From a virus (Duplodnaviria > Caudoviricetes): DNA of 64,000 nucleotides. Positions 4,596 to 63,800 of this stretch are shown in pieces. A model generated the notes under the pieces. It made no database searches, was not told where the DNA came from, and saw nothing but the letters and a program-made list of their open reading frames with translations. Where the stretch lies: positions 8,394 through 72,393 of IMG/VR virus record IMGVR_UViG_3300033067_001199; one strand, 5' to 3'. The stretch's first letter is position 1; each line of letters opens with the position of its first letter. The translations under genes and the position numbers were made by a program.

Positions 4596-4614
4596 TTCTT
4601 AACTTATAAGTGAA

Positions 4615-6832: not shown

Positions 6833-7417
6833 TTATAGGTTAGATACTGCATAATACATTGTTATTTTCAAAGTCGCATTACCGGCAGTTGGATTTGATG
6901 TTGGAGTTGTAATCTTAAATGCCCCATTGGAGTATGTGTTTGAACCACTAACTCCTGCATTCTGTTGTAAATTTCGAAAATAAAATGTGTTTTGAGTCAA
7001 TGCTAATGCGCTACTTAAAGTAAGCCATGTTCCCCCTCCATAAGTAAATATTAGTGTTTGGTCTGTTGCATAAGCCGCACTCACATAAATGTACTCTACC
7101 GTCATTGATATTGGAACAATTACTGTGTTTGCCCCTTGTGCCGCTACAATAGTTATAGGTGTTGTGTGAAGTGCAAGTATTTGAGCCGCACTAACCGTTA
7201 CCGTTGAAGATTGTATTGCACTACTTCCACTCGCTTGCCACGTAGCATTTCCACTTCCATCCGAAGTAAGAACATCGCCATTAGATGCTCCTGTTGGAAT
7301 AACTACACTGCCATTCAGAGTTACCTTGTTGTTGAATTCCCATTCTTGATTTTTGACTACCTGCGAATTGGCAAATAGGAATCCAAATAATAGAACTGAT
7401 AATAATTTTGTTTTCAT
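6833..7417 (-). CDS. Signal-peptide-bearing fibre-like protein (194 aa)
   Basis: Start moved to MKTKLLSVLLFGFLFANS-Q (ATG 7417); contains fibre-type motif GDVLTSDGSGNATWQ. Confidence 0.6.
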   Translation of the reverse strand: MKTKLLSVLLFGFLFANSQVVKNQEWEFNNKVTLNGSVVIPTGASNGDVLTSDGSGNATWQASGSSAIQSSTVTVSAAQILALHTTPITIVAAQGANTVIVPISMTVEYIYVSAAYATDQTLIFTYGGGTWLTLSSALALTQNTFYFRNLQQNAGVSGSNTYSNGAFKITTPTSNPTAGNATLKITMYYAVSNL

Positions 7418-10365: not shown

Positions 10366-10455
10366 ATACTTAATTGAATTTGGTGACTTCTTTAAAACTA
10401 CCGCGCCCCCTCACTCTTACAGGAGTTCGGGGGCTTTCCGCAGTAGGTTATCTTA

Positions 10456-11817: not shown

Positions 11818-11852
11818 TTTTTATAAAATTTAGACAGGTTTTAAAAAATTGT

Positions 11853-13013
11853 TTACTTCTTTCTTCCACCTTCCGCCTCCAAAATCATAGCGGCAATATT
11901 AGTATCTCGGTCACCTTTGTTTCCGAAATCCTCTTGGCCGGCTGTGTTTGACATTGACGGATTGTGAACTAACTGCATCCACTCCTCATTTGACATACTT
12001 CTTCCTTGATTCATAAAAGCAACTGCCATCTCGTTCATGTGTTTAGCAACGTATCTGTCACGCAGGGCTTGTGCCGCACTTGCGATTCCATTCTCGTCAG
12101 CTACCAAATTCGGATTTTTAAGCATAGCGCCAAACTCATTCAACAACTCATTTTGCTCCGCTGCATCCATCTTTACATTATAACGAAGAATAGCACCGCT
12201 TGGGGTAGGAATTTCAATCTTATTGAAGCTCTCGAAAATCTGCTTGGTAGCAGGCTTCCACGCATCCAATCTAGCTGACTCCTTTCTGCTATCCTCAATG
12301 TTCTGGCGGCTTCCTCCGTTCTGTAACAATTTCTGTTTCAGTTCATCGAATTTTTGCAGGTGAGGTTGAACATCGAACTCAAGACGTGTCATACCCGGTG
12401 CTTCATCGCCATTTTCAGCATACTTGCCTAGCTTGTATGTTTGGTCAATGTAGTCCGTAATCTTATCCATCGAAATGCCCGGACGCTCCTGCTGTAACGC
12501 AAATGCCATTACTTCCTTCATCGACATTTTTTCTTTGTCAGAAGTAATAAACCTCAATGCTACATCAGGGGCAATGTTTTTAGAAACAAGATCGTCAAAT
12601 ACTTCACCGAATGGAGATTTATAGGGGCTTTTTTTAACCATCTCCTCAAGTTCCACCTGTCTTCCAAGACGCACTTTGATGTTGTCTGGCGTATCACCCA
12701 GCATTTCGCTGATTGTTTTAGCCACATCTTGTACGTTGTTTTGCTCGGTTTTAGGTGTTACCTTAGTTTCCGGTTGATTGACCTGTTTGGTCTGCGTTTG
12801 ACTTCCGATCTCAATTACTTTAGTCGGTGTCTTTTCCGCGCCCTGTGTCTTCTCGATAGTCCTAACCTGGGTTGTGGACTCGCTGTTTGGTGCGGTAACA
12901 GTTACATTCTTATCTCCACCGGCATTCTGTACCGTTTCGGCACTACCTGTTTTGATTCCAAATGCTTCCATTACTGCTGAAGCTTCTCTGTCGGTTACGT
13001 TATTTGGTGTCAT
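11853..13013 (-). CDS. Putative scaffolding protein (386 aa)
   Basis: Between portal and MCP; low-complexity T/E/K N-terminus and helical C-terminus. Confidence 0.55.
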   Translation of the reverse strand: MTPNNVTDREASAVMEAFGIKTGSAETVQNAGGDKNVTVTAPNSESTTQVRTIEKTQGAEKTPTKVIEIGSQTQTKQVNQPETKVTPKTEQNNVQDVAKTISEMLGDTPDNIKVRLGRQVELEEMVKKSPYKSPFGEVFDDLVSKNIAPDVALRFITSDKEKMSMKEVMAFALQQERPGISMDKITDYIDQTYKLGKYAENGDEAPGMTRLEFDVQPHLQKFDELKQKLLQNGGSRQNIEDSRKESARLDAWKPATKQIFESFNKIEIPTPSGAILRYNVKMDAAEQNELLNEFGAMLKNPNLVADENGIASAAQALRDRYVAKHMNEMAVAFMNQGRSMSNEEWMQLVHNPSMSNTAGQEDFGNKGDRDTNIAAMILEAEGGRKK

Positions 13014-15436: not shown

Positions 15437-15448
15437 CGCTATTTTTTG

Positions 15449-15520
15449 TTGCGGGGGCAGGACTTGAACCTGCGACCTTTGGATTATGAATCCATGCTCT
15501 ACCAACTGCGCTACCCCGCG
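15449..15520 (-). tRNA. tRNA-Met(CAU), initiator-like, structurally atypical
   Basis: CGCGGGG TA GCGC AGTTGGTA GAGC ATGGA TTCATAA TCCAA AGGTC GCAGG TTCAAGT CCTGC CCCCGCA A; C1:A72 mismatch; CCA not encoded. Confidence 0.8.
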
Positions 15521-27563: not shown

Positions 27564-27958
27564 GAATGAGATTAACAGATTTACTACCGGTTGGCCATGC
27601 TGGGGTAAAGGACTATAAAAAAGTTGGCTGGGGATTAGTTTCGGTTGGAGATGTGATTACTATTCCAAACACGTTTTCAAACAGAACTATTTACTTCTAC
27701 GCCATACTTCGGGAAGCCCAGAGTCATGCCAAAAAAATAGGGGCGCTGGTTGAAGCTCAGTCAGATAATTCAGATATCTGCATATCATTCCTAAAGGAAG
27801 AGTTGAAGGGAATTGAAATGACTGTATCGCCAGAATTTCCAAAACACAGGGGTTCTTACTATGGACACGAAGAGGTAGAGCATCGGCCAGAGTTGAAAAT
27901 ATTTGTTCCGGCTAATTGGAATCTGGTTTCTATAAACTTTCAATGTGAGGACAGATAG
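27560..27958 (+). CDS. Hypothetical protein (132 aa)
   Basis: ORF track; coupled. Confidence 0.5.
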   Translation: MRMRLTDLLPVGHAGVKDYKKVGWGLVSVGDVITIPNTFSNRTIYFYAILREAQSHAKKIGALVEAQSDNSDICISFLKEELKGIEMTVSPEFPKHRGSYYGHEEVEHRPELKIFVPANWNLVSINFQCEDR

Positions 27959-28697
27959 TTTGGTTATTCTTGGCGACTGTCTAACCGGTATGGCTGGTAT
28001 GGCTGATAATCAATTTGATTTAGCTATACCAGACCCACCATACTTCTCTGGACCAGAGAGGAGGTCTTTCTATGGAAGCGATATCAGCACACTAAGGGTT
28101 AAGCGAGTATATTACCCTGTTACAAATAAGTGGGAAGTTCCTGGATTCAAGTGGTATGAAGAGCTTTGCAGGGTTTCTAAAAACCAGATAATCTTCGGTG
28201 CGAATTACTTTGATTTTATAGGAGTCCACAAAACCCCTAGAGGCGATGAAGAGTTGCAAAGGTGGATATCAGAGCACCCTACCGGCTGGATTGTGTGGGA
28301 TAAGTGCGCAAGAAAGAGTTCTTTCAATGATTTTGAACTTGCCTGGACATCTTTTGACCGGCCAACAGTTGTGTTTAAGTTTATGTGGGCAGGAATGATG
28401 CAGGGTAAAAGTGTTTCTCAAGGCCATATCATGCAGGGGAATAAAAAGCTAAACGAGAAAAAATTCCACCCGACACAAAAACCAAGACCGCTGTATAATT
28501 GGATTTTTAATACCTATTGCTCCAGCGGAGAAAGTATTTTCGACCCGTATGTAGGTAGTGGAAGTAGCAGAATTGAGGCCTACGATGCCGGACTTCCATT
28601 TCTGGGATATGAAATAGAGGATATTCACTTCGATGCACAGGAAAAAAGATTTCAAAAACACCTTGCAGCGCCAAAACTTTTTAATTTAGCAATATGA
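27945..28697 (+). CDS. N6/N4 DNA methyltransferase (beta class)
   Basis: AIPDPPY, HPTQKP, IFDPYVGSGS. Confidence 0.9.
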   Translation: MRTDSLVILGDCLTGMAGMADNQFDLAIPDPPYFSGPERRSFYGSDISTLRVKRVYYPVTNKWEVPGFKWYEELCRVSKNQIIFGANYFDFIGVHKTPRGDEELQRWISEHPTGWIVWDKCARKSSFNDFELAWTSFDRPTVVFKFMWAGMMQGKSVSQGHIMQGNKKLNEKKFHPTQKPRPLYNWIFNTYCSSGESIFDPYVGSGSSRIEAYDAGLPFLGYEIEDIHFDAQEKRFQKHLAAPKLFNLAI

Positions 28698-34921: not shown

Positions 34922-35575
34922 ATGTCAACAGAAGCAACCGGCCAAGAGCCAAAAAAAGCGTCCCTATTCTCTAGCGCTAAAGTAGTAGAGAAGAAAACGG
35001 CAACTAAGGAGGAGAAGTTGTCTATCGTATTAAAGGAAAGTGAATTTCCGGGTTTCTCTAATCAGCTAAAGAGGGCAACCGAAATCAGAAACATATCTGC
35101 CGACCTGGAAGCAGAGGGTAAGATGATAGAGGGGCAGATTAAAGAGATTGGGAAAGCTCAGTTTATCAACCTGTATGCAAAGGGTAAGGTCAACCCTGGT
35201 TCGTTTATTCTGAAAGGAGAAGAGGGCGGAGCGATGATGTTTATTATGATGGATAAATATTTGTCTATTGATAGTGACAGAGCAGAGCAGTTAAAAGAAA
35301 CTTTTGGCGAGGATACTGTTAGCACAAGTGTTGAGTACAGTTTTAATCCAACCCTGTTAGAAAAGTACGAATCAGTTTTGAGTGAACTGATAATGAACTG
35401 CAAAGAGATAACTGATGAGGACAAGGCTGAACTGATTGTTCAGAAGCCAAAGTATTCAGTATCTAAGGGAATGATTGAAAGGGTATCTGCCATAGCCGGT
35501 AACGATGCCGCTAGAATGGAAACAGTAATAAATTCTATTCAGCCTGTCGCGCAGCTCAAGAACTCAAAGGGTTAA
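34922..35575 (+). CDS. Hypothetical protein (217 aa)
   Basis: ORF track; A-rich leader. Confidence 0.65.
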   Translation: MSTEATGQEPKKASLFSSAKVVEKKTATKEEKLSIVLKESEFPGFSNQLKRATEIRNISADLEAEGKMIEGQIKEIGKAQFINLYAKGKVNPGSFILKGEEGGAMMFIMMDKYLSIDSDRAEQLKETFGEDTVSTSVEYSFNPTLLEKYESVLSELIMNCKEITDEDKAELIVQKPKYSVSKGMIERVSAIAGNDAARMETVINSIQPVAQLKNSKG

Positions 35576-35796
35576 ACTGTTTCAAGTCAGTATAAATTGT
35601 GAGTCCTGCCGCGAGGCAGTAAACAAACTTAACCAAGCCATGAAAGGAAAAGAAGAAAAATACAAGGTAGTCCATACGCACAGATATTTTGTGGGCATTG
35701 AGAACACCCAAGCGCCACAGGGCGCAAAGTACGTCCGTTATTGGAACGATGAAAAGCATTTAGCAGAAGCCAAAGAAATAACCAAAAGACTGAACG

Positions 35797-40428: not shown

Positions 40429-40500
40429 GGCTTTGTAGTTCAATGGACAGAACGAGGGTTTCCTAAACTCTAAATAGCAGTTCGATTCTGCTCAAAGCCA
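40429..40500 (+). tRNA. tRNA-Arg(CCU)
   Basis: GGCTTTG TA GTTC AATGGACA GAAC G AGGGT TTCCTAA ACTCT AAAT AGCAG TTCGATT CTGCT CAAAGCC A; canonical cloverleaf, A20 identity base; CCA not encoded. Confidence 0.9.
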
Positions 40501-40513
40501 CTAAATTAGATAT

Positions 40514-40711
40514 ATGGTAAAATGCGTAAACTGTGGAGCGTCAATGTATGATAAGCCACTTCAAAGAACTAACCCAACAGGGCAAAGTGATGCCGGTTGG
40601 ATGTGTCAAGATTGTATAAAAGCGATAGAGCCAGAGCTTTATCAAAACTTGAAAGACGATGGCGATTTAAAAATAGCCAACGATATTTTTAATGCTGTTA
40701 ATGGAAAATGA
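40514..40711 (+). CDS. Zn-finger-like small protein (65 aa)
   Basis: CVNC...CQDC. Confidence 0.6.
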   Translation: MVKCVNCGASMYDKPLQRTNPTGQSDAGWMCQDCIKAIEPELYQNLKDDGDLKIANDIFNAVNGK

Positions 40712-41316
40712 TTAACTACTGCGACAAGTGCGCCAAAGTGCGAGGCATGGATGTTTTTACAATGCAAAAAAAGGCAAACTGCGATTTGTGCGGAGGATTC
40801 TTTATGTGTAACACAGACAAGACATCTTCCCTCAATTCACCGGCTGATGCTTTTTCCGAAAATGGATACTTTAATTCCAAAGACCTGTCACAACTGCTGG
40901 CCCTGATTAAGAACAGGCAAAGCGTGTTGACTCCGAGGATTAAGCAACTGCAAACTGAATTATCTGGAAACTATGCTTTGGCTGTAATTGCTGATGATAT
41001 AGATGAGATTAAGGAACTTGTTGCCGCTGGACTAACTAAGAGGTCACTAGCCGGATTGCAGGGCGTAATAAAGAAGATATCGGGCATTTTAGCCAGGTGG
41101 AACTTTTCGGCACAAAGAGAAACCAAGTCAACTATCCTTCAGAACTTGATGGCCGAGAAGTCCGGGTTAGCTGAAAAGGAAAAGGAGTTGAGTATCCTTT
41201 ATAAAAATGCGCTGGACCAAATACTGATTAACCAACTGCGTTTCAGGGTAGGTCGGGAGGCTTTTGAAAAGTGCTATGAGGAGGCGAAGGGTATCTATTC
41301 AAAAACTAACAAGTAA
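40708..41316 (+). CDS. Hypothetical protein with N-terminal Cys cluster (202 aa)
   Basis: CDKC...CDLC...C. Confidence 0.55.
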   Translation: MINYCDKCAKVRGMDVFTMQKKANCDLCGGFFMCNTDKTSSLNSPADAFSENGYFNSKDLSQLLALIKNRQSVLTPRIKQLQTELSGNYALAVIADDIDEIKELVAAGLTKRSLAGLQGVIKKISGILARWNFSAQRETKSTILQNLMAEKSGLAEKEKELSILYKNALDQILINQLRFRVGREAFEKCYEEAKGIYSKTNK

Positions 41317-41495
41317 TCCAAAGGATACACACAATGAAAGTAAAGTTTGAAAGCAGAGCGATTTGAGTAGTTAATGAAAACTAATAACGTTTTCGGGCTT
41401 GGCGAAGTGGCTGAACCTTAACTTAACCGAGATGTGTCAGGCGGCTATTGCAAAACCGCTGTTAGCCGCTGGCCTTTCTCACAACACAAATAAAA

Positions 41496-41744
41496 ATGTC
41501 AAAGAAAAAACAAACAACAGACCCAAAAGAAAAAGCAAAGCTGATGATTGAAGAAATTATCAAACTTGAAAGTAGGCTCACCTATATAGCCGTTCGAGAG
41601 GCTAAAGCTATTGCACGCCAAAGAATAAATGATGTAGTTGCAACTCTTGACGAACTAATTCAAATGCAAGATAGTGTTGGTCATGCTGTCGGAATGAAAC
41701 ACTGGTGGTTACAAGTTGATGAAATGATTGATGTAGTCGCTTAG
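41496..41744 (+). CDS. Cassette-borne hypothetical protein (82 aa)
   Basis: ORF track; between arms 41461 and 41749. Confidence 0.6.
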   Translation: MSKKKQTTDPKEKAKLMIEEIIKLESRLTYIAVREAKAIARQRINDVVATLDELIQMQDSVGHAVGMKHWWLQVDEMIDVVA

Positions 41745-41857
41745 GCTTGCGGCGTATCGGGTATTGGCGATGCCCGCAACTTATAAACTTTGAATTATAA
41801 ACAAGCTGTCAGGCGGGTATTGCCAATACCTTGTTAGCAGCAGTAACGGTAAATTAT

Positions 41858-42145
41858 ATGGCACTTGATTTAGAAAAAATTAGCAAAAAGTTAGACGAGG
41901 CTTTGGCAAATATGACACAGGAAGAAATTGACAAATATTTTCCTCCTGATACTCGTCCAAAAGGGTGGTTAAGTATTGAAGAATATTTACCAATGATGTA
42001 TGCAATTGACATTATGCAAGGATATACACTTTACAAGGTTAAAGATAAAGACGGCAAAGAATTTGAAAGTGCTGTGTCCGACCATAATGTTTGGTATTAT
42101 ATGGCAAAAGAAGCCGGTATTACTCACTGGTGGAACGTGGAGTAG
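41858..42145 (+). CDS. Cassette-borne hypothetical protein (95 aa)
   Basis: ORF track (ATG 41858); between arms 41833 and 42148. Confidence 0.6.
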   Translation: MALDLEKISKKLDEALANMTQEEIDKYFPPDTRPKGWLSIEEYLPMMYAIDIMQGYTLYKVKDKDGKEFESAVSDHNVWYYMAKEAGITHWWNVE

Positions 42146-42169
42146 TTATTGCTGATAACAAATACTAAA

Positions 42170-42676
42170 ATGAAAATCAATAGAATTTGGGCAATGCCCT
42201 CACATCACACTTTTAAAATTAAACCAATCGCAGAATTGGTAAGTAGATACGTTGGGGATGGCATTGGATGGATAGACCCTTTTGCAGGCGAAAACAGCCC
42301 TGCTGAATTTACAAATGATATGAACCCCGAAAAGCCCGCTAAATTTCACTTACACGCTAAAGACTTTGCAGCGCAATTAGACGGCACTTACAAAGGGGTA
42401 TTATTCGACCCGCCATACTCACTAAGGCAGGTTAAAGAGTGTTACGAAAGCATAGGGGTGAAGCTGTTTCAAGAAGATACACAACGTTTCCCGCAAAATG
42501 TAAAGGAACATATTAGCCCTAAAATAGTTACCGGTGGGTATGCTATAACCTTTGGCTGGAATAGCCAAGGTTTTGGTAAAAAGCAAGGTTTTGAATTGAT
42601 TGAGGTGTTATTAGTGCCACATGGGCGGGGGCATAATGACACCATTGTAACAGTAGAAATAAAAGTAGAATGTTAA
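42170..42676 (+). CDS. Small adenine-MTase-like protein
   Basis: WIDPFAG (motif I), VLFDPPYS (motif IV). Confidence 0.75.
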   Translation: MKINRIWAMPSHHTFKIKPIAELVSRYVGDGIGWIDPFAGENSPAEFTNDMNPEKPAKFHLHAKDFAAQLDGTYKGVLFDPPYSLRQVKECYESIGVKLFQEDTQRFPQNVKEHISPKIVTGGYAITFGWNSQGFGKKQGFELIEVLLVPHGRGHNDTIVTVEIKVEC

Positions 42677-42716
42677 CCCAACCGCTTAGGTTACTAAACT
42701 TTAAAATTAAAAACAA

Positions 42717-43034
42717 ATGTCAAATAGAATTACTGAACAGCCATTTTGCCAAACCCGTGTTAGTGGCAGTAGATTATCAGGAAAAACCAATGCTATGATT
42801 TTATCAATGATACCTGAACTTAAAGCAGGTCATAAAATTGGTGTTGCAGGTTGTAAAGACCCGAAATATATTACTGAACGCTTAAAAGCATACGGAATTG
42901 AAGTGCAAAGTGAACCAATGATTGCAACACAACCGATGAAAGCCATTCATAACTTGAATAGCATTGAGGGCGAAATAATAGGATTTGAGAATGGCGAGAA
43001 AGTTCAGACAGGGTTTCTGTTCTATTGCCACTAA
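42717..43034 (+). CDS. Cassette-borne hypothetical protein (105 aa)
   Basis: N-terminus QPFCQTRVSGS is encoded by an arm; stop TAA lies inside CACTAAC. Confidence 0.6.
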   Translation: MSNRITEQPFCQTRVSGSRLSGKTNAMILSMIPELKAGHKIGVAGCKDPKYITERLKAYGIEVQSEPMIATQPMKAIHNLNSIEGEIIGFENGEKVQTGFLFYCH

Positions 43035-43072
43035 CGTAATACATCACGAAACTTCCATGAAAATCAATCAAT

Positions 43073-43723
43073 ATGGCAACAATAAAGATTTATACAGACG
43101 GCTCATGCCTGTTGAATCCTGGCGGTCCGGGCGGATGGGCTTTTGTTGTGGCAGACCACACCGATATAACTATAACCGACTCTACTTCGTTTTTCTGCGG
43201 TGGCAACAAGGAAACCACGAACAACGCAATGGAGTTGACAGCCATTCTCGAAGCTCTTAGGTGGGCGGAGGATAACAACCGGAGTAGCTTCATAATTCAT
43301 TCCGACTCCAAATACTCGATGAATGTATGCAATAATTGGATGCACATTTGGGCGCGTAACTCTTGGAAGAACAGAGAGGGTCAGAAAATAGCCAATGATG
43401 GTATAGTAAAGAGCATTTACAACCTATCTACAAAAGTTGCTTTTAAGGTTGAGTGGGTAGCTGGGCACAGCGGCAACGTATTCAATGAGTTTGCCGACTC
43501 TCTGGCTAGTAAGATGGCATTCCGGATACAGGGCAAAGAGTATGCAAAGTATTCTGACACCGGCCCTGGTGACAGGGTGATGGTTGGCTCCTCCCCATTT
43601 CGGATTATTGCCAAATTTATTTCAACTAACATTGTCGTACTGCAGCCGATATTCGATAAGAGGCTAAAGACCATGATTCTTGAGGCTGATGAGTTTGACA
43701 ACAGAGAATACATAAAAATATAA
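43073..43723 (+). CDS. rnhA: Ribonuclease HI
   Basis: IYTDGSC..NPGGPGGW, TTNNAMELTA, HSDSKY, WVAGHSG..NEFAD. Confidence 0.92.
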   Translation: MATIKIYTDGSCLLNPGGPGGWAFVVADHTDITITDSTSFFCGGNKETTNNAMELTAILEALRWAEDNNRSSFIIHSDSKYSMNVCNNWMHIWARNSWKNREGQKIANDGIVKSIYNLSTKVAFKVEWVAGHSGNVFNEFADSLASKMAFRIQGKEYAKYSDTGPGDRVMVGSSPFRIIAKFISTNIVVLQPIFDKRLKTMILEADEFDNREYIKI

Positions 43724-43865: not shown

Positions 43866-44456
43866 ATGAAATTCATTATCGCCATCGACCCAGGCAACAA
43901 GACAGGGATAACCTATGGTTACTCCAATGCAAAACCAATAACCGAACTGCATGACTTTACCCCGAAGCCGGCAACAAAGGGAAGTAAGAAAACACCAGGC
44001 AGAAAGGCCGAGGAGAAGCACATTCGTTATGGAAAACTGTTTCTCTTAATCCAAAAGATAATTCGGCAAGAAACTAACCCAACAACAGAAGTTGTAGTTG
44101 TCTGCGAGGGCGCTGCTGGGTTCACTAAGGGCAAGTCTGCTGTTGAGGTAAGTAATAAGTACCGCGGAGTAGTTGAGGCCTTTGCTGCCATCCATAACTA
44201 CACCTACATCGGAATACAACCAAATGACCTTCAGCGCTGGGCTACCAATAAGGGCAGAGCAGAGAAAACCGAGATGATGAAAGTTGCTTTTGAAAAGTAT
44301 GGATACAAGGGAACAGATGATAACGAGGCGGATAGTGTGCTGTTGTGGCATTTTGGCGCAAGTTCATTTGTAACCGGAAAGCCTATTTTCCTAGATGATT
44401 GGGATTGGGATTGGCACATTAAGCATCTAGCAGAACTAAACAAAGACACCAATTAA
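43866..44456 (+). CDS. RuvC-like Holliday junction resolvase
   Basis: IIAIDPGNKTG, VVCEG, DDNEADSV. Confidence 0.8.
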   Translation: MKFIIAIDPGNKTGITYGYSNAKPITELHDFTPKPATKGSKKTPGRKAEEKHIRYGKLFLLIQKIIRQETNPTTEVVVVCEGAAGFTKGKSAVEVSNKYRGVVEAFAAIHNYTYIGIQPNDLQRWATNKGRAEKTEMMKVAFEKYGYKGTDDNEADSVLLWHFGASSFVTGKPIFLDDWDWDWHIKHLAELNKDTN

Positions 44457-51885: not shown

Positions 51886-54800
51886 TTATTTATAATAGTC
51901 AAGTAGCTGTTTTTTAACCTGCTCACTTATATGATTAGGGTCACCAGACGGAGCCTCTGCCATTGCGTTTATCTGTGCTCTTGCAGAAGAAGCGTCCATT
52001 CCAGACAGCTTGTTATCAAAAATCCACTTAGCCTTTTCGCCTGGTAACTTTTTGGCTTTGGATATCTCCTTGTCAAGATGAGCCATGTCAATAGAAAGTT
52101 GGGTAACATCGCCTCCGTAGGCCGCTGTTTGCTCTATCTCCTTTTTCTTCTGGTTTCTGAGCTTTGTGTATTCGTAAACAGACTTGTCAGCTACCGGTAG
52201 GTTATCAATACCTGCGCCTTGTCCTATCTTGAATCTCTCTCTCTGAACTTTCTCATCAAACTTCCTTGAATGCTGCTCGTTCATCAAATCAAGGAACACT
52301 TTCTGAACGTCCGGCATAGGTTCGCCCTTTCTAAACGCATCGTCCATCTGCTTAGAAACTATGGCAACAGAATTATCTACCTCTGCCATTTTCATCTTTG
52401 CGGTATCTGGGTTATCCTTTAGCCATTCGCCCTTTATATCCCTGTAAGCCATCAGCACACCTTTGAACGCGGTTATCTCTTTTTTGTTCTCGAGGTAGTA
52501 TTGGTATAGGTATCTTCTGTATTCATCTTTACCCAGCCACTCTTCTACATCTTGACCTGCAACAACCTTATCATTTACGGTCTTGTTTATCTCCTCCATG
52601 TCGGATAGCTGCTGGTAGAACTTAGAAACATACCCACTCCTAGCGCCTGTTGCTGTTTCATTCGTGAACACTTTGGTAATAGGTAGCCTTGACAGGGTAG
52701 TGAATGTATCTTCGTTTTTCTCATCAACTACGCCAGCCTTTTGCATAGCATAATCAGCGGTAACGAATGCACCATAACCTATTCCACCGGTGTAACCCTT
52801 TAGAACGTGGTCCATCTTCAAAGGCGACATACCAAGGTTTCTTCCGATAGCCTTTATTATTTCGGGAGTCCTGTCATTATACTGCTCTTCTGGGGAAAGC
52901 CCTTTCATTCTATCCGGAACAATCTTCTGGCCGGTGAAGGAGTTCTTGTTCGCCCACAACTCAACCGCTGGTTTGATTATTTGCGGAGTAAGGTCAACCA
53001 GATTCTGAACCGGTGAGTATGCCTGCAGGAATGCGCTGGCAACACCTTTAAGAGCCTCTGTGTCTTCATGTTTAGATACAGACTTAATCAACGCATCGTT
53101 ATTGAAGTGGTTATCGAGCATGGTTTCTACCGAACTTCCGAACAATATACCTGCTGCGCCCTTTGGAATTGACAACGGAGGTCTATCGGGGCCAAGGATG
53201 AACAGATTCCAGAAACACTCTTTCCTCCATGAAGGTAATGCTTGATATGCTTTTCTGGTCTTCTCGTCATTATTGTTGATAGCCCATAAAGCTAGAGTAG
53301 GCAGAGTCAATCCGACAGCACCGGCATACATGAACTTACCTGGCTGATCGATAGCAGACTTGGCCAATAGTTTAGCGTGTTGCAGTCCCGGATTCAAGAA
53401 AGGAATAAGCGGAGTATATTTTCTCATAAACAGAGAAGCGCCATGTCTAGCATAGTCAGCCGTTGACTCTCTGGCCTCCTGCGCAGCCAATTCAGCCGAA
53501 CCGGTTTTCTTGTATGCGTTCTCGAATACCGATACCCTGGTTCCGATTTCGGAGTAGTTGTTTATCAGTTTCATCCAATACTTAGCATTATCCCATCCAT
53601 CCTTTACTTTCTGGAAGCCGTCAGCACCGTAAAAGTCCCTGTATATCTTTTCAGAATGATTTACATTAACTAAAAACGCTTGGTCGGCACCAGATTCCAA
53701 AAACTTCTTGTAAATGCCGGCATCTCCAAACAGGTTCAACAGTTTGTTATCTGGGTTCTCGTACGCCAGAGCATTGAAGATTCCTTTCGGGAACGTGTAA
53801 AGCATTTTGATATACGGAGCAGGTATTCCGCCTATTTGACCAAATCCATATTTACTGTTCATGGTAGCGGTCACCGTATCTCTGAATATGTTTCTTGGCG
53901 CATACTCTGGGTTATAATAAACCGCGGTTGCCTTTAAAACTCTTGCAGGGAAAGAAAGCGCCCTATGTAATGGGTCATTTGGCATTGAAAGCTCATAGTT
54001 GAATACCGTTTCGAAGATATCCTTTGGAACTCGGTAATACTTTAACTTGCCATTCTCCCTAACTTGAACAATCTGGAACATACTAGGGTCGCCCTTAACT
54101 TCCTCAAAGCTTTTCCAAGTCAAATTACCCTCTTTGTCATATACCAACTTCGAAACAGGTATTTCCTGCACCGATGAAGGGTCAACCATCTTCAATCCGT
54201 CAACGTGCGCCCTTAATGCCGCGTTCTTATTTGCCATTGTCACAACGTCAGAAGCATTCCTCAAGAAGCCCTCCATAGGCCTCTGTATCGGTCTGGCTGC
54301 ATCAATACTCGGATTAAGTGAACGAACTACTTTCCTTGTTGAAGAACCTAGTGAATTACTTGACCCACCGGAACCAACAAAACTCTTTTCGAAGTCCTCA
54401 AACACTCTCTTGAAAGAAACGTAGTGCTCCCTCATCTTTATAATCGTATCGAAGTCCTCTTGAGAAATTAATCCGTTCTCTCTTGCGTAATCAAGAACCT
54501 GGGTGCTCACTTCTCTCACATCATCGCTGAGCTTATCCAACTTAGCCTTTCCTCCAAGTGTAGGGTCTGCCTCATTCAATGCAACAACCGCCTCAAGTGT
54601 TTTTCTAGGCATACTCACAACGCCCCTGTGCTCATCCACAAGTTCAATATGCTTTTTCAGCCTCTCCATTTCCTGCTTGTATTCCTTAACGGCCTGCTTT
54701 TGCTCTTTAGCACCAACTACAACCGGTGTTCCATTTACAGTAAACATATCCGGACCCGATTTGCTAGGGTCATATACCAGATTATGTCCTGTCTGCCATG

Positions 54801-57800
54801 GAATAGATGTTTCAAATCCGTTTGCCTCGATATCGGAAATAGCATCCCTCGCCTCGTCTGCTCTGTCATACAACTCCAATGCGCTCTTTGCAAACAAATG
54901 TCCTTCCGCCAGCAACTTGTTTCCGCCATCAAAAGCATCAAAGGCTTTTTGGTATCCATGGCCGAACACATCTATCTGACCGGCTGAACCCAATAGCTTA
55001 ACCACTCTTGCCATAGGGTTATCGCCTGCAGGAAGACTAGGATTAACCTCTTTCATCGCCTTTTCAAGAACCTGCGAATAAACTGTGCTATCCAATAACT
55101 CGAATGTAAGTTTGTCGCTTAGTCCAGATAGGCCGTCCTTTACAATCTTACCCTCATTATTCGGGCTGACCATAGCCTTTATACCAGACATCAAATCGCT
55201 TTTCTCTTTCTTGTTCTCCATGGCCACCTGCACCAACAATCTCGGATCCTGCGCTGCGTATCCATGAACGTATCCTTGTCGGGCAGTTTCAATCGCTTTC
55301 TTCAACTTTGGTTCAGTAGCAATCAAGTTCTCGAAGAAATACAGGAAGTTCGGCATCTCTTTAGCCGCGGTTGCTGGGTCAGTTATGTAAACCCTCAAAA
55401 ATTCAGCAACACCCTCAACAGTAGAAACCTTGTAGTGTCCCTCTTTCTTTAGGAACGCTTTCAGTTCGGTTGTCAAAGCCCTTTGGCCTGCAATCTTACC
55501 TGTCTTTCCAGATATCTGAAACACCTCCTTATCCATCCAATGCCCTAACTCATGCGCCAGGGTATTAACGTCATGTAGGTTGTTTACATTTACAATACCG
55601 GTTTTGCTGAAGAAGACCCCCATGGTACTTCCTTTCCTCATCCATTGAACTAAACCGGTTCTGACATTCTTACCCTCTCTGTAATCAACTCCCTTTTCCC
55701 CAATGCCAGAATTTTCCTCGCTCCAATCAGCGATATCCTTTATCAGCTGTGTGCTGATATCTTTCAAGTGCACCGCGTTCTTTAGGTCGGCTACTGTAAA
55801 ATCAGATTTAACAGTTGGGTTTACTACTGCGTTCTGGTAACCTCCCAGCAAATCATCTACCTTCTCATCAATGTTGTCGGCTGACTCCTTTAGTGAAGCA
55901 TCTGTTTTCGATACGGCCGAATCAAAAGTATCGAAAACTGAATCCTTTTTTTTGGGCTTACTGCCCAATCTACTGTCTGATGCTCCATCTCCGCCCAAGT
56001 CGAATGATTTTTGCCTTTCTAAAAATTGGTCTGCCTTTGCCTTATCCTTGAAGATAAAGCCGGGTATAGCACCACCTCCCTTGTATGAACTGTAATATCC
56101 ACCTAACCTCTTAGCCTCTGCCGCCAAGTGCTGATAGTCTTCTGGACTTAGCCTGGTGTTCATCTTAACCGTAAACAACGGCTCACCTGTTTTGGTATGT
56201 TTCGTTTCTACCAATTCTAATCCTGCAACCCCTTTCCCCTTTTGCTCTCCTTCCGGAACTTCTTTCTTTTCAACTACCGGACGCTCTGGCAAACTCATAT
56301 CCTCGATAGAGTCGAACATATCGTTTATATCCTCGTGACGAGTAAGGTCAATATTTGAATAAGGTCCCAACTCCTGCCTTATCTCTGGATTGTCAACTCT
56401 GTCAATTACTAATATCTGCGTAGCAACCTTTGTTCCTGCGCGTTCAAATGTTGATGTAGGCAGTTTAATAATTGCCCTCAATGCCAGGTTATCGGTTTCC
56501 TTATTGTTATAGAACCACTTCGCAAACTTATCATTGAACGCACCCTCCGGAACCAATGCGGTTATTCTTCCGCCATCTTTCAAATGCTTCGCTGCTTTAG
56601 CCAAGTGAGAGATAGCCGTTGTTCCAGCATGGCCATAAGGAGGATTCATGGCGATACCATCGTATTTGTTGGTGATGTGGAAGTCCTCGAAGTTCATCAT
56701 CTCCTTTCTTGAACCCTCTGGCAAGAATAGAGAAAGCTCAGAACTCAAATGATATTCCGGCTCAACCGCGGTAACATTTACATTGTCTGGGGCAAATCTC
56801 GCAATCGCTCCATGACCTGCTGATGGCTCTAGGAAGTGCTCATTCGATTTAAGCCCCAACCAATCAACCATTTTATAACCTAGCGGCTCTGGCGTAGGGA
56901 AGTAATCTGTTCCCTTATCCGTTTGCCGACCTTTCCTCCTTTGCCAATAGTATGTTTTGGCTTTCTCGAATGGAGTAAGGACGTTAAATGTTGTATCGGT
57001 TCTCTTACCGCCAACACCCTGCTCTACATTCGGGTCAAACATACTTGCACCTAAATACCCAGATAAGAAAGACTCTTTCAGATTTCTGGCTTTGCTTCCA
57101 GATGAAAGATTTTCGGCAGTTCCTACCCTCTTGGATATTTTCTGGCCGAAGATGTTCTTCTCAAAGTTCGTATGAAGCCCCAAGTATTCAAACGGAGCGT
57201 CAGACTTCTGACCTATTCTGTAAATCCTACCCTCGCCCTGAATCGCATTAACCGGCTCGATAGGCAAGTCAAGTCTGATTTGCGCCCTTTGGTGAACGCC
57301 TGTCTGGTCATGTAGTGAGATACCTTCCTTACCTGCCTGTATCTGAACCAACAGTATGTTTGGACCAGCAAAATCATCGTTGAAGCGCTTAACATTGGCC
57401 TCTCTTAAAGGTTTAGCAACCTCTCCATTAAACGTCATAAATTGGTCGCTATCCTGTCTGGTCTGGTCAATGTCTACAACCGCAGTCCTAGTTTCGGTCT
57501 TCATCCTAGACTTAGTTTCACCGTTCTCTGTGTATTCCTCCTCATACCTTACAGGATATTCAACCGTAACAGAGTTTTTTGGTGCCGGCTGAATAGTTTT
57601 GCTTTCAATAACTTCTGCATTTTTGGAGGCAGATTTCATAAGCTCTTCCTTAACGGCATCAACATCTTCAAACCGTATCTTCCATGCGGTAGATGTCTGC
57701 TTAGTTCCCCTAGCCCCAACCATAACCTTTTTAGCCAACCCAACCATCTCTAACTGCGCACCAACAGAATCGGGTATAGAGTCATATATCTTCTTGAGGT

Positions 57801-60800
57801 CTGCATGAGCGCCATCCGGAACAAAATTTTCTCCGTCTTTATTCATTCCCAGAAACTCCTTTGCCATCTTCGCCTTTTCCTCTCTGGCTTTCATCAATCT
57901 GCCAAATGCTTGAACATCTGCTTCACTAAACCCAGACTTTGCCGCTTGAACCTCTTTTATTGCTTTCGATTTTGGAGCAGCTACCGAGTCGCCTATGGCC
58001 ACAACTTTAGCCTTTGGATGCAATACGCCCTTTTCCCCAGACTTATAAACGGTCACCACATCTCCAATCTTTTCAGCCGGCTTTCCAAACTCTCTTCTAA
58101 GTGTTTCAATCGGGTTAGCCAGGTCACCAAGCGTTAAGGCCTTGAACTCTGGGTGCTCCCTTTCAAACTGCATAACCTCCTCGCGGATATCGCCCATGTC
58201 GGCTTTCATCTGGTTAGCCACCTGCTGAATTAAATCAGAATCATTTAGGTTAAATGGATGGTCTGGAACTGCATGGTTGTAGGTATGGAATATCTGCACC
58301 TTTCTACCAAGTGCAAGGTGTTTCTTAATCCGATCAATGGAATGCTTTGCCTTAATAGCTTCCGTCAACTGATTAAGGTAGTGCCAATCCATTTTCTTTC
58401 TCAACAACTCATCAAGATACTTATACTTCTTCTCCCTTGTTTCTCTGCTCACTAACTCTATTCCTGCGTCAATCTGCTTTCCTAGTTCATCATCAACCAG
58501 AACGAAATCACGCGAATAATCGTGGTCAACAGAAAGCGCCCTATCGCTCATTACTCCCCTCTGGAACATTCTATCAATGTAGTCCCTTTCCAAAATACCA
58601 GAGTCAACACCAGCGTCCGGCTGTGTCAACTTGTTATACCTCATCCGATATCCGAAGTTCTTTATGTAGAACAAATCTCTAGCATCGCCAGAATTGTATC
58701 CTTGACTACCTGCGTAATCAACTCCCTCTTTTATTGTTTCCAGATATCCGTCAACATACTCTAGGTTGAATGGATGGCTGAAAGGCGTAGCAGATAGAAA
58801 CACAACTTTTGTTTTGTTCAGTTGGTTCATATACTCCTCATGCAGCGCCTCATCAAGTTTCTTTACGCTATCTGAATTTCCCCTAGCCGACTTCAATCTC
58901 TCATCGTAAGCTATCTTTTCCTTTGCCAACCTCATAGCTACTGAAGGAGATTTTGAAACCTCTCTGTGCTTTCTGGTTATAGCCGTTGTGCTTCCCTCTT
59001 GATTTCTCATCAAGGCATGGCTTTCGTCATAAATAACCAAGTCCCAATCCTTTTTAGTGATGGCATCGTTATCCAGAAAGTTCTTGTGGGTAGTGATAGA
59101 AAGCCCCTCGCCTCCATCCTTTGTATCCTCCAACCTGTAACCCTCCATCTGCATCTTGCTGGCTGCGCGTATCCAATCGCTTATCATCTTCTGGTTAGGA
59201 GTAGCGATAAGGATATTCTTCTTTCCCTCTTTGTAGAACCTCTTTGCAATTCCAAGGGCAGTATATGTTTTACCGGTTCCTGTTCCGTTTGTAAACATCA
59301 TACCTTTTCCAAACTGATTCTCTGGCGTATTGTGCTCCGGAGAAAAGAATCTGGTTTCCGCCTTATACACATCGTCATGCTGTTCCTTGAAAAGGTACGG
59401 TAGCGTTTCCGCTATGTTATCCTTATCCAGAACCTTAACAGGAATGTATTCAGCCTCCGCCTGTAACTTTACTTTTCTTGCATCTTCTTTTTCAGCAAGT
59501 TCATTAAGTCTTCTTGTTCGCTCCAAGATAGACTCCTCTCCTGTGCCTCCATCTGTGCCGCTTCCTCCAAGGTCGGCACCTCCGGTAGCTGGCTTATCCA
59601 TCTTGGGTTCTTCTCTTTGAAGCTCTTTATCGCTTCCCTTTCCAGAAACAGGGGCGCTATCTGTTGGTAGCTGTTTATCACCGAGTCCGAGTAGCCCGCT
59701 TTCGTCAAGTCGTTCCCCTCCTTCTCCAATTCTTCCTCCATCTCCTCCTGTGTTTTCAGGTTGAACATCTTCTTTGCCCAACTCGTCTTCAACTTTTCGC
59801 TCTTTGCTAGTTGATTCCAATTTTCCAATGGTAGTTGATACATACGGTTCAATTTTATTTTTATCAATATAATCCTTAAAAGCATTTTTTAAAGCAATAA
59901 CAGTAGCCTCTTCCCTCCTCATCAACTTGCCGTTTAGCTTGTTAATCATCAGGATTCTGTCGGTGGTGTTTAGGTCACCGTTCATCTTCAGCATCAGCGA
60001 TTCAGTCAAATATCTGTCAGTAGGGTTATCCCTCCAACCCTCTACAATATCCTTTATCGCTGGCGTAGGGTATTCCCGATCAACGGCCTTTATTTCTTGA
60101 ACCGGTTCTTCGGAGTAGCTTTCCTTTATGAAGGTATCGAAGTCGAACTTCTTAACCTCTTTCAAGTCGCTCAACTGCTCCGAAACGGCATCATCAGCGC
60201 CCATATGGAAAGAAGCATAAGCCGCTTTAAGTGCCGGCAGCAATCCCTTTGTCTTCTCTTCGCCCATAGCCTCAACAAGAGAAAGGACTATATCGGCAAA
60301 CTTGTAAGCGCCTTTCTGGGTGAACTTCCCTAAAATCTTAACACCCAAAGCTATTTGCTCCGGGTTCAACATCAATCCGCCAGGTGGAATAAGTTTTGAG
60401 AAATCATCCAGGTCGTTCAGCAAGTCTTCGTCAATCTTTACGATTTTCCGCTTAACCCCTTCCCTAAGTTTCCGAATTGTGGGTTTGGATTCTTCGGTGT
60501 CCTTAGAAGTTTGTTCGCCAGCATCTCCAACGTCCGTTGTTTTATCGCCATCGACTTCTTCTTTCGTATCCTTGCCGCGGTCGCTTCCATCTCGTCCGAG
60601 GTCATTTTCGGTTTGCCCATTATCTTCCTTACCAATTTCTGAGCTTCTGTCAGTTTCGTTGCCATATGCTTTCTTTTTTAAGTTCTCCAAACTATTTTCA
60701 AAATCTGCAAGTTCACCCGGACTCAACGAAGTTTTATCCATCGAGCCAAAGTCTTTCTTCGCTTTGTTGTATTCCTCAATAGCTTTCTTTTCCGCACTAC

Positions 60801-63800
60801 TGTTCGCTTGCTTTTCTTTCTCTGCCTTTTGGTAGCTAGTTTCCTTACCAGCTAGCCGGTCAGATATTTCATTCTTAACCTCATCTGGCAATTCGCTCCA
60901 TTTCCACTCATCAGCATACTCTGGAAGGTCGTATTTGTCCACTAATTCCGATGGAACATATTTAACCTTATCTACCCCAGCTAATTCATTCCACACCTTT
61001 TCATCCTCTGCCTCTTTAGCGAAATCATCAGCCGTAACCCCATTAAACTCCTCTTCTACTTTCTTTTCAATCTCGAATGGAATCTCATTACCTCCACCGC
61101 CAAACAAATCACCTTGATTAAGCCCAGCGCCTATCATGTTTCCCTTTTCGGAAACCAAGTCAAGCATACGCTTACGCAATGCCTTTAAATCTGCTTTGTG
61201 CTTTTCCTTTAGCGTTTCAGCTAACTTTACAAGGTTATCGTAATCCGGTGCCGTTGGCTTAACGTACTGCTTGTTATTAGGGTTATTAAAGCGCTCGTTC
61301 AGTTCGTCAATATGCCCCTGCTTTTCCTTTATCTTCTCATCCAACTCACTTCGCTTAGCCTCGTATTCGCTTTCCCCTTGAGTAACTGCCTGTATCCTTT
61401 TAAGATTCAGCATGGAGTTTTCGTTAAAGCCGATAGTTCCGACAATACTTGCCACTTTCTGAACAAAGTCCTCTCTGCGCGTAAACCTCTTTGACGCATC
61501 CTTATCGAGAAGAAAGTCATACATCTCATTCTCCTGCCTGTCGGTAAGAGAAGGTATTTGCCTCCTTGCGCTACCTACCCAATCCGCGATCCTGTCTGCC
61601 TCCTTTTGAGTAGCCCTGTCCTGCGAACCGGCTAATGCCGTAATTGCTGCAACCGTCTTTCCGTCTGGGTTGAGGTGGGATAGGTTGATTATAAAGGCGG
61701 AATTTCCCCTTTCCAGGTCTTTTGCCTTATCAGCAATTTCTTTCTTGCTGCTTCCAGCATCCCTCATCTTCCTGTAAATAGAAGCCCTCTCCAAAGGTGT
61801 TTCCATGGTACGGTTTGCATTGGCCTCCTCTTTAGCGTAAGCAATAGCCTCCGCCTCCGTTCCCTCAAAGTATGTAGCCTTTACCTTATCCAATCCCTTC
61901 TTCTTAACACCTGCAAATCTGTGGTGACCAGAAAGAACAATAGTTTTACCTGTGCTCGGGTCAATCCACACTACAACAGGGTCAAACTTTGCCGAGTTAT
62001 AGTTTTCGGCTATGGAGTTTACAACATCTTCATTAAGCGCCTGCCTGTTCTGGAACCTTGCCTCATCAGTTATGATATCCTTTATCGGCAACATGATTAC
62101 ATCGGAAGCCTCTGGCGTAGTTTCGGACTCTGGAACAACCGGCTCTTCTTTCCAATTATCCTCGATAAGTCCGTCAATTACCTCATGCGCAGTTTTATTG
62201 AAGTTTGATTCAATACCAGGGCGCTCGAACATTTCAGAAAACACATCCCTAACAAAAGCATCCGCATCTTCATTCTCAAGAACCAATCCCTTTTCGGCTG
62301 CATACTTTAATATCTCCGGTGCCGTTTCTTCATACTGATTAGCAACGTAAGAATGAACCTCCGCCTCCAAAGCCGAAATCTTCGACTCCATCTCCTTGAC
62401 ACCAGCCTTGTTTTTTGCTTTCTTAAAGGCCTCTAAGCTCTTCTGATACTCTGAAAGGATATCGGATACAATACCCTCCATGTTATTGTATTCAGTAGCC
62501 AAATCTGACACCTTGCTTCCTATAAACGCTAAACCCGAAGTATGCTTCGGGGCTTTTGTAATAGACAAATTCTCTTCCTGTATTCGCTCATCCTCCGTTA
62601 GCTGGGCGGCTAGGTCAGTTGATAGGTTATCATCGGCAGGAGGGGCAATATCATTCTCCTTTACTATGTCCCTCGATGTCAGTAGTGATTCTTCAACAAC
62701 TACCATTTCTTCATTAGCTTTTTCTGTTGTATCTAAGTTAGCTAATTCTGCATCATATTTAGCATTGATTTTAACCCCTAATTCACTCTCTGTTGTTACA
62801 CCTTGCTTTTTAAGTGTGTTTAATACAAAAGATAAATTATTATTGGTAATACCAATAGTACCATTTTCTTTCTTTATAAATTTATCAAGTAAGTCTTTAT
62901 GCTCTGGATAGGCTTCTACAAATAATTGAATACCTACATATAGGTTTTTCATTCTATCTCCTGTAATAACAGAAACTCCATCCCATTCTCTTTTAGCTTC
63001 ATTTCTAAAAGTTTCAAGAGGACTTTTTTTATCTTTAGAATCTCTAATATAAGACGTAGGTCTCCTTCTTTCTATATCAGCTTTTTTAGATTCTATATTA
63101 GAAATAGGATTTGTTTTAGCTTCTTCCAAAGCAGCTAATTCCGCATCATATTTTGCATTGATTTCTTCATTTGTAGCTATATAAGCAAGTTTATTGTTTT
63201 GGTCAATTAACTCTTCTGTCCAAGCTAATACATCTTCTAAAATACCTGTTATTGTACTTCTGTCAGGAATTTCTTTATTAAACCTTTTAGCCCATCTTTC
63301 TAATTGTTCAAATAATAAATCGCTAATAGCATTTATAAATTCAGAAAATAAATTAGATTTTTTACCTTCTGCTTTTGTGTTTTTTAAAGTATATTGAAAA
63401 CCTGTATTACTAAATGCTTCTGCAATAAATTCATCTAAATTAGTAAATCCATATTCTCTGGATTTAGGATTATCTCTTTTAACCTTTTGAAATATTCTTT
63501 GTAATTGTTCTATTGCATTTTTTTCTTTAGCTGTAAGTTTAGATTTAAAACCTGGTATTAAACCTTGTTTTTCAATATTATAATCTGATATTTTTGATGT
63601 AGTAAATCCATGTATAAACTCATGTATAAATGTGTGAACTTCATGTTCTTTTCCAGCTAAAATTCCATCAAGTGTTTCTTGAGAAATCATCATACCAAAC
63701 CAAGTAGCTTGTCCACTTGCATTTCTACCATTAATATATTCAGAATCTACAATAGTAGAATATTTACTAAAATCAATTAATTTTTCTAATATTCTAATAA

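Follow-up and report, generated by a model that had tools for sequence, protein, structure and literature searches.

The window, by which we mean the whole stretch of 64,000 nucleotides that was analysed, carries four small genes on the + strand at 41376-43035. GTTA and about 9 nt open each of them, and a complementary stretch of about 9 nt followed by TAAC closes it. Hairpin sites sit between these cassette genes (Table 1). The cassette A ORF had no Pfam or PHROG match. The ORFs of cassettes A and B were considered as paralogues and rejected, as there was no similarity between them. The cassette C gene has its stop codon inside GTTAAC (42672-42677), and this cassette has no hairpin of its own. 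In cassette D, the first 18 residues of the ORF are encoded in the B3 arm, and the stop codon lies within the closing core.

Table 1. Features of the cassette array, in positions of the window. R1 is a covariance model trained on Flavobacterium phage copies of the site.
Feature	Position	Strand	Evidence or remark
Site 1, hybrid	41376-41473	+	R1 34.9 bits, E 2e-4
Site 1, left flank, then core TAAC	41385-41388 (core)	+	
Site 1, A arm	41389-41419	+	filifjonk f5291 type
Site 1, right half, unrelated B arm (B1)	41435-41460	+	
Site 1, GTTA, then 9-nt flank	41461-41464 (GTTA)	+	
Cassette A cargo, 82-aa ORF	41496-41744	+	ORF list
Site 2, well-paired hairpin, TAAC core missing	41745-41845	+	R1 26.1 bits, E 0.014
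Site 2, arms	41760-41777, 41813-41830	+	
Site 2, GTTA	41833-41836	+	
Site 2, flank	41837-41845	+	
Cassette B cargo, 95-aa ORF, no known family	41858-42145	+	
Cassette B closing flank, TTATTGCTGATAAC	42146-42159	+	complementary to opening flank 41833-41845; no hairpin after
Cassette C cargo, orphan DNA methyltransferase, DPPY motif	42170-42676	+	phrog_11619, E 1.5e-33
Half-site 3: 3' loop part, ATG, B3 arm, GTTA (42759-42762), flank	42693-42771	+	
Cassette D cargo, 105-aa ORF	42717-43034	+	ORF list; weak phrog_1828 match only
Cassette D closing flank, TATTGCCACTAAC, array end	43023-43035	+	inverted repeat 93% complementary

An earlier sequence-only reading had described complementary arms around these genes. 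The arm at 42759 and its counterpart at 43023-43035 were confirmed as 15-nt arms (42759-42773 and 43021-43035; 93%), with the TAA of the ORF at 42717-43034 inside CACTAAC, and the flank pair of cassette D is that of the filifjonk methyltransferase gp010. For cassette B, 41833-41845 and 42146-42159 matched at 10 of 12 positions over the stretch originally compared. The pairing proposed between the arm at 41461 and GCGGC holds for GTTAGCCGC (41461-41469); the coordinate was one base off, GCGGC lying at 41750-41754. Flank pairing reached 8-9 of 9 positions in cassettes B and D and was partial in cassette A because its core is deleted. Imperfect palindromes had been placed between the cassettes; the two arms of site 2 are indeed complementary at 16 of 18 positions, and RNAfold gave -43 kcal/mol for 41740-41855, but good pairing is confined to this site, the A arm and B1 of site 1 pairing poorly. 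A consensus reported for B1 and B2 was recovered, with 41435-41469 and 41807-41841 80% identical over 35 nt, and a third copy, B3 (42733-42771), had gone unnamed. The pattern TTGC-N8-TGTTAG occurs on the + strand exactly three times in the array and once elsewhere in the 64 kb.

Enrichment of arms over shuffled sequence did not emerge from counting: short complementary flank pairs numbered 7 across the window and 5.3 in shuffles, which is not above shuffles, so the case rests on family membership rather than on counts. R1 matched the window only at site 1 and site 2, and blastn identified two further pieces, the A arm and half-site 3, each 94% identical to a site of the Flavobacterium phage filifjonk (half-site 3 to L001:2550-2629). 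These two pieces, about 1.27 kb apart, are the separated parts of one f5291-type site; many metagenome contigs join ~41407-41417 straight to ~42691-42744. At site 2, a contig of run X4 carries CTAA inserted after 41752, restoring GCGGCTAACGT. The array is thus decayed: site 1 is a hybrid, site 2 lacks the TAAC core and site 3 lacks one arm, so the array is mostly fixed in place. Damage to two of the three sites and the modest R1 scores in the window count against the cassette reading. Searches of viral_contigs with the proteins at 40708-41316 and 43073-43723 found no close relatives of the window phage. Its genome has few proteins in common with filifjonk, and no recombinase was found in the shared set.

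The site itself is a hairpin of 60-145 nt. On the folding strand it consists of a 9-nt flank, TAAC/GTTTT, a 4-bp stem, a C.A mismatch, a stem of 10-15 bp, a loop, the return stem, T-GTTA and a second 9-nt flank. MAFFT and RNAalifold misaligned the stems of whole sites and gave a weak consensus, and the structure was therefore assigned by hand. We compared 125 viral and 69 chromosomal unique sites. The results showed that TAAC and GTTA are invariant, whereas the full 7-mers match RYYYAAC and GTTRRRY only partly, and that the inner helices are 90-99% paired with many compensatory changes. Three irregularities set the fold apart from that of attC: a bulge of GTTTT on one side only, a C.A mismatch that is fixed and a G.T pair that is likewise fixed. 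In chromosomal sites G.T outnumbered A.C by 136 to 3, and one G.T was kept in 67 of 69. Only one of the two DNA strands is under constraint to fold. On chromosomes the strand that folds runs antisense to the cargo (32 of 35 intervals), as attC bottom strands do, indicating that the constraint acts on DNA and not on mRNA. In phages it is the sense strand in 52 of 53 intervals, which means that the cargo is flipped; this inversion of phage cargo genes relative to chromosomal cassettes corrects the first reading.

The complementarity of cassette ends, which had been claimed for the window, was found in the family. The flank after each site is the complement of the one before the next site and not of its own hairpin partner, as is characteristic of integron cassettes: pairing across cassettes averaged 8.0/9 in viral arrays (51/68 scoring at least 8) and 7.8/9 in chromosomal arrays (22/31), while pairing within the same hairpin (4.9-5.3/9) was equal to random. 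Since the two outer flanks of each cassette are complementary, circularisation would restore a single long hairpin.

Six Flavobacterium phages carry 9-15 sites per early region, all on one strand. We mapped 122 homology endpoints between related phages, and their dominant classes lay at the two edges of the 7-mer TAACGTT, in line with the gene gain and loss at cores that had been foreseen. Hybrid sites, such as tooticki 4496-4631, have one site's flank joined to another's body exactly at TAACGTT. Judged from these junctions, the crossover appears to lie at the core, G/TT. A minority of phage breakpoints fell elsewhere: within arms, on the GTTA side, or at no site at all. These fit ordinary homologous or microhomology recombination. 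Members of the family bound gene-content differences between related phages exactly at AAC/GTT, which agrees with the earlier proposal of an attC-like cassette system served by a recombinase from elsewhere or from the host.

Metagenome evidence came from Logan contigs, which are prone to break at repeats. Contigs with other contexts carry cassettes A, B and D and site 2, their homology ending at 41753, 42159, 42758 and 43035; runs X5 onward cover only small shares of the stretch, and parts without contig cover (e.g. 42205-42632 in X2 and X4) carry no information. Homology to cassette A in such contexts stops at 41753, the block of cassette B spans 41832-42159, and run X3 holds a 92% identical copy of 42758-43035, that is, of cassette D. 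In a sister phage on a metagenome contig, 41319-43081 is swapped for 1230 other bases; the breaks of this replacement, at 41318 and 43082, are outside the cores, a point against the cassette reading.

The same site family was found on Bacteroidota chromosomes, where its arrays keep to one strand and reach about 30 sites. In four genomes, a tyrosine recombinase of Xer-like type is encoded at the array end, and its homologues were found at at least 18 further 8-kb loci, fetched by site pattern alone, and on viral contig L013. When the array-end recombinases were aligned with VchIntIA, residues 186-245 were unmatched, and about 40 residues of the IntI-specific insertion are missing. In IntI, this insertion binds the flipped-out bases of attC. 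The array-end enzymes scored 192-203 bits against TIGR02249, the NCBIfam integron-integrase model, below its cut-off of 265, and their best matches were archaeal XerA, PDB 4a8e and 5hxy (E 1e-40). Since the presumed cognate enzyme is of Xer type and has no IntI insertion, the sites are not canonical IntI attC sites, which corrects the first reading. The adjacency of this enzyme to the arrays suggests that it catalyses the exchange; the missing insertion and the score below the cut-off weigh against this. The sequence-only reading had seen no integrase nearby, and the rest of the genome agreed: searches with PF00589 and PF01797 found no match in the window genome, whose completeness is estimated at 82%, or in the complete genomes of four Flavobacterium phages. 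By these models the window phage encodes no tyrosine recombinase, which tells against the cassette reading in so far as it has to presume action in trans.

Many properties of the family are those of integrons, including one-strand arrays of promoter-poor cassettes, hairpin sites with AAC and GTT cores, a stop codon often in the inverse core, crossover at the core, a core box whose variable part is shared out to the neighbouring cassette and agrees with the far end of that neighbour, and a fold constrained on the strand antisense to chromosomal cargo. The sedentary chromosomal integrons with inverted integrase of Treponema denticola and relatives have intI co-oriented with the cassettes; likewise, the tyrosine recombinase of the Bacteroidota arrays stands at the array end, co-oriented with the cargo. 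Unlike in integrons, this recombinase is Xer/XerA-like and lacks the IntI insertion, the site has its own consensus (TAAC/GTTTT, a fixed C.A mismatch, a fixed G.T pair and 9-nt complementary flanks), and the phage cargo is inverted within the cassette, the loop carrying the start region. In sequence, the array-end enzyme is closest to Xer/dif and archaeal XerA recombinases; in contrast to the array-end system, Xer enzymes resolve chromosome dimers at one double-stranded dif site and do not work on rows of hairpin sites with gene cassettes between them. The array behaves like an integron, yet it is not a canonical IntI/attC integron. Because its family of folding sites is common to phages and to Bacteroidota chromosomes, where it lies beside an Xer-like recombinase, the array is part of a barely described integron-like system. 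We consider it likely that the four cassettes at 41376-43035 form a short and partly decayed array of this system of Bacteroidota and their phages. In the literature searched we found no description of an Xer-like cassette system in Bacteroidota, which proves no general absence.

Under this interpretation, the array-end recombinase would cut and join the folded strand at the TAAC/G core, as IntI does at attC. In phages without a recombinase gene, the window phage included, cassettes would be moved in trans by the enzyme of the host or of a co-infecting phage, and ordinary recombination between similar sites may assist the movement. The orphan DNA methyltransferase and the three small ORFs of no known function that make up the cargo would be early accessory genes. 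The methyltransferase of cassette C probably protects the phage against restriction.

An alternative, which we regard as unlikely, is that the hairpins are transcribed expression elements of early operons (terminators, processing sites, mRNA stabilisers or translation-start regions) whose repetition makes them preferred places for general or microhomology recombination, with no dedicated recombinase in phages. The five phage genomes without a recombinase, the phage folding strand being the sense strand, AT-rich loops that often hold the start codon, an upstream stop supplied by the TAA of the core, the conserved G.U-compatible wobbles and the breakpoints within arms are all consistent with it. 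There is also a precedent in the PeSL mobile regulatory cassettes of T4-type phages (Arbiol et al. 2010, PMC2839356; Comeau et al. 2014, PMC4122927), in which repeated stem-loops likewise flank small non-essential early genes, sister phages swap genes at the motifs, and mini-circles are predicted or seen. Unlike the window family, however, PeSLs are promoter-plus-terminator units that move by general homologous recombination, and they have no partner recombinase, chromosomal arrays or cassette-specific complementary flanks. Site structure and chromosomal context argue against PeSL membership. The chromosomal sites weigh against the expression-element explanation: they are antisense to their cargo and nevertheless have the same one-strand wobble pattern, indicating that the family's primary constraint is not in mRNA. 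The tyrosine recombinase that ends the chromosomal arrays and the focus of breakpoints on one 7-mer also speak against it, and a regulatory role leaves the complementarity of flanks across cassettes unexplained.

A second alternative is that the array is a fragment of a canonical integron, i.e. a CALIN (a cluster of attC sites without integrase), with true attC sites made for and moved by IntI. It would account for the AAC and GTT cores, the imperfect palindrome, the stop in the inverse core and the cassette-type flank complementarity. Phage CALINs have been reported (Qi et al. 2023, Front Microbiol, PMC9892861), so the earlier statement that such cassettes are rarely reported in phages is fair, while calling them unreported would be wrong. 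In that study, standard attC tools flagged a CALIN with two methyltransferase cassettes in Polaribacter phage P12002L, and HattCI called a short relative in P12002L (PMC9892861). Like the window array, those phage CALINs are rows of cassette-like genes that lack an integrase; they occur in virulent phages, among them a Flavobacteriaceae phage, and have methyltransferase cargo. P12002L_attC1 has the layout TGCTAAC/GG...TTGTTAGGC of the window family. Unlike our analysis, the study used IntI-type attC models and IntI1 assays, and it described no separate family, Xer-like partner, Bacteroidota chromosomal arrays or flipped cargo (PMC9892861). P12002L_attC1, the closest published layout, is the one site not verified with IntI1, and R1 gave no match on P12002L, whose published sites are shorter. 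Rfam holds no attC family. The array-end recombinases, with their missing insertion, nearest relatives in archaeal XerA and scores below the TIGR02249 cut-off, count against IntI as the partner, as does the spacer, which is a one-sided GTTTT bulge instead of the two-sided unpaired spacer of attC. We therefore judge a canonical integron fragment to be quite improbable.

Leftovers of local tandem duplication of paralogous small genes, or chance matches, would agree with the common spacing of 371-372 nt of repeats D1 and D2 and with the flank-pair count, but this explanation is negligible, since ORFs A and B are not related to each other, the repeats share 94% identity with sites of unrelated phages and match a structure model trained elsewhere, and the B arm is read in differing frames in different genes. 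Conservation of the B arm as a peptide was also rejected because the arm lies in different frames, or upstream of the start, in different genes.

The textbook example of gene capture is the integron, defined by IntI and the special domain with which it reads folded attC sites. Returning to the integron-like reading, we raise the tentative possibility that it represents a second, independent "integron" in Bacteroidota and their phages, built from a plain Xer-like enzyme and its own hairpin site. Host enzymes would then act in trans on the DNA of infecting phages, so that methyltransferase and other counter-defence genes could circulate between unrelated phages; and because phage cassettes form a flipped pool, the folding strand would be transcribed and the site would double as the 5' expression element of its gene. 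If such a parallel system is widespread, cassette capture through hairpin sites is possible without the IntI domain or has had multiple origins. Methyltransferase cassettes set phage host range against restriction systems, and the system would explain why near-identical ones occur in unrelated phages of one host group. It would also expose cassette arrays missed by current integron finders, since these require IntI. The window array would be a decayed example, illustrating erosion in a phage without the enzyme. The phages concerned would range in size from siphoviruses of 38 kb to contigs of over 160 kb.

The sequence-only reading had described an integron-like cassette array with attC-like sites in the window; we confirmed the observation, and the site family, breakpoints and cassette flanks support the reading. 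Its quoted repeats were all found in the sequence, one coordinate being 1 base off, and the upstream arm has one more copy, B3 (42733-42771), that it had not named. Four short plus-strand genes, the cargo of cassettes A to D, lie within 41317-43072 among ordinary phage early genes, in an IMG/VR virus contig of 72 kb with an estimated completeness of 82%. Family searches with ORF A, ORF B and ORF D gave no convincing family.

Features of the window
Feature	Position	Strand	Details
tRNA-Met(CAT)	15448-15520	-	
DNA methyltransferase, second	27945-28697	+	35% identity to filifjonk gp009; outside array
Type-P3 twister ribozyme	35569-35635	+	Rfam RF03154, 57.8 bits, above gathering score
tRNA-Arg(CCT)	40429-40501	+	just 5' of array region
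ORF A	41496-41744	+	82 aa
ORF B	41858-42145	+	95 aa
DPPY DNA methyltransferase (cassette C)	42170-42676	+	phrog_11619, E 1.5e-33
ORF D	42717-43034	+	105 aa
RNase H	43073-43723		array neighbour
RuvC-like resolvase	43866-44456		array neighbour
Single open frame	51886-63993	-	~4035 aa; reaches window end

Comparison of the region with phage records by blastn matched no more than two short stretches, with 94% identity, in 13 Flavobacterium siphovirus records. The stretches lie 1.3 kb apart in the window (41383-41419 and 42693-42771) and are adjacent in phage filifjonk, between two methyltransferase genes. The joined filifjonk sequence folded into a long hairpin, variants of which occur in nearly every intergenic gap of its leftward early operon. 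On the gene-sense strand, the common layout opens with a 9-nt flank and TAAC/GT(T)TT, followed by a stem of 4 bp, a C facing an A, a second stem of 10-15 bp and a 20-90 nt loop; the return stem then leads to T-GTTA and another 9-nt flank. The next start codon often lies inside the loop, and the upstream gene's stop codon is often the TAA of the core. The reading frame of the 3' arm differs from gene to gene, indicating that nucleic acid is conserved, not peptide. Among 125 unique sites, the inner helix was 90-99% paired with many compensatory changes, and one G.T pair was kept in 121. Two annotated hypothetical proteins of filifjonk, gp016 (35 aa, 7289-7396) and gp019 (55 aa, 8439-8606), fall almost wholly within hairpin sites and probably do not represent genes.

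We trained a covariance model, R1, on eleven filifjonk sites, with the structure set by hand. In six Flavobacterium phages it found 9-15 sites per early region, every one of them in sense orientation, and its only matches in the window were site 1 (41376-41473, 34.9 bits) and site 2 (41745-41845, 26.1 bits). An exact 26-mer covering B3 and its flank occurred in 32 stretches of 28 IMG/VR contigs (4.5 to 187 kb), several of which have arrays with a density of 9-12 sites per 10 kb. A further viral contig, IMGVR_UViG_3300020029_000349 (L019), has R1 sites at 9682-12754, on the plus strand at 9682-11114 and on the minus strand at 11787-12754, and has the look of a pair of opposing arrays.

The sequence-only reading had proposed checking related phages for gene-content breakpoints at the cores. 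When six related early regions were compared all against all by blastn, 122 homology endpoints resulted, whose dominant classes lay at either edge of the 7-mer TAACGTT; a minority fell within arms, on the GTTA side or at the array's last half-site. The site at tooticki 4496-4631 is a hybrid whose left flank comes from one filifjonk site and whose body comes from a different one, a 499-bp one-gene unit between them being absent; mumin 2334-2444 and snork 9084-9231 are built alike. We then compared the 9 bases after GTTA with the 9 bases before the next site's TAAC. Pairing across the cassette averaged 8.0/9 in viral (n=68) and 7.8/9 in chromosomal cassettes (n=31), whereas the two flanks of the same hairpin paired at the random level (4.9-5.3/9). 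Judged by sequence, such pairing is the hallmark of integron cassettes: closing a unit into a circle would restore a single long, perfect hairpin. Across 22 different downstream settings, the methyltransferase unit following a B3-type site ended in TATTGCCACTAAC. Such a site with its flanks further occurs as a fusion with a C5-methyltransferase-like gene and, in the window, with ORF D. In one site type, the B arm codes for a leader of 18 residues, M-x-x-RITEQPFCQTRVSGS (window 42717-42770; viral records L001:2575-2628 and L012 ~11790-11840), which is fused in frame to three proteins unrelated to one another: an N6-methyltransferase, a C5-methyltransferase-like protein and ORF D of the window (105 aa). 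The three fused genes share the terminal flank TATTGCCACTAAC or a near match.

The window's copy of the array is small and decayed. Site 1, which combines an A (5') arm of the filifjonk f5291 type with an unrelated B (3') arm, is poorly paired. Site 2 forms a good fold but lacks the four core bases, a contig of metagenome run X4 having CTAA at the exact place. There is no hairpin in cassette C, site 3 retains the loop end and B arm only, and the array stops at its last TAAC. Logan contigs from four metagenome runs break at repeats and so report presence, not frequency. Contigs of other context shared cassette A (up to 41753), site 2 (from 41753), cassette B (41832-42159) and cassette D (42758-43035, 92% identity), with homology stopping at the cores. 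In many contigs the A arm is joined directly to the B3 half as an intact site, and in a sister phage with ~98.7% identity in flanking genes, 41319-43081 is swapped for 1230 other bases. Summed contig depth in runs X2-X5 was 1000-3000 at 41349-41455 and 42633-42846, which cover the A arm and the B3 half-site, against ~15 in flanking genes; this site type is borne by many other genomes in these water and wastewater samples.

A scan for the A-arm motif, with one genome per species, gave at least 120 stretches spread over Bacteroidota, the matches listed including Flavobacterium, Chryseobacterium, Pedobacter, Chitinophaga, Saprospiraceae, Dyadobacter and others. R1 revealed one-strand chromosomal arrays in F. 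ichthyis (21 sites in 30 kb), F. psychraquaticum (~30 in 36 kb), another Flavobacterium (17) and Pedobacter mendelii (6). A tyrosine recombinase gene lay 1-2 kb past the same array end in all four genomes; homologues occurred in at least 18 other loci of 8 kb fetched by site motif only, and beside a site in a viral contig (L013). The predicted enzyme is Xer-like: its best NCBIfam match was the XerA/integron-integrase model, it scored below the cut-off of the NCBIfam integron-integrase model, and it has no counterpart to VchIntIA 186-245, which holds the IntI-specific insertion. The window region works like an integron cassette array but does not qualify as an IntI/attC integron. The literature searched contained no description of the Xer-like partner, nor any of the chromosomal arrays.

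Chromosomal cassettes have the canonical order, gene then site, in the orientation of the recombinase, and their cargo lies opposite the R1 (folding) strand in 32 of 35 intervals. On that strand, G.T pairs outnumbered A.C by 136 to 3, the fixed G.T being present in 67 of 69 sites. Since the wobbles stay on the R1 strand though the cargo is opposite, the fold is selected on the non-message DNA strand, exactly as in attC bottom strands, which argues against a role of the site family in RNA alone. Viral cargo lies on the R1 strand (52 of 53 intervals); in phage cassettes the gene is therefore inverted, with the hairpin before it and the loop supplying the start region. A second role of the phage hairpins in the transcript is possible.

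The Baltic Flavobacterium phage paper does not mention the repeats (PMC7077304). CALINs are reported in phages, including Polaribacter phage P12002L with two methyltransferase cassettes; its P12002L_attC1, the sole site without IntI1 verification, has the same core layout as the present sites but is short (Qi et al. 2023). R1 did not match it. The nearest phage analogue is the PeSL cassettes of T4-type phages.

No R1 site lies near the second methyltransferase of the window. The twister ribozyme, which lies in the same early plus-strand operon, starts at the final codons of ORF 34922-35575.
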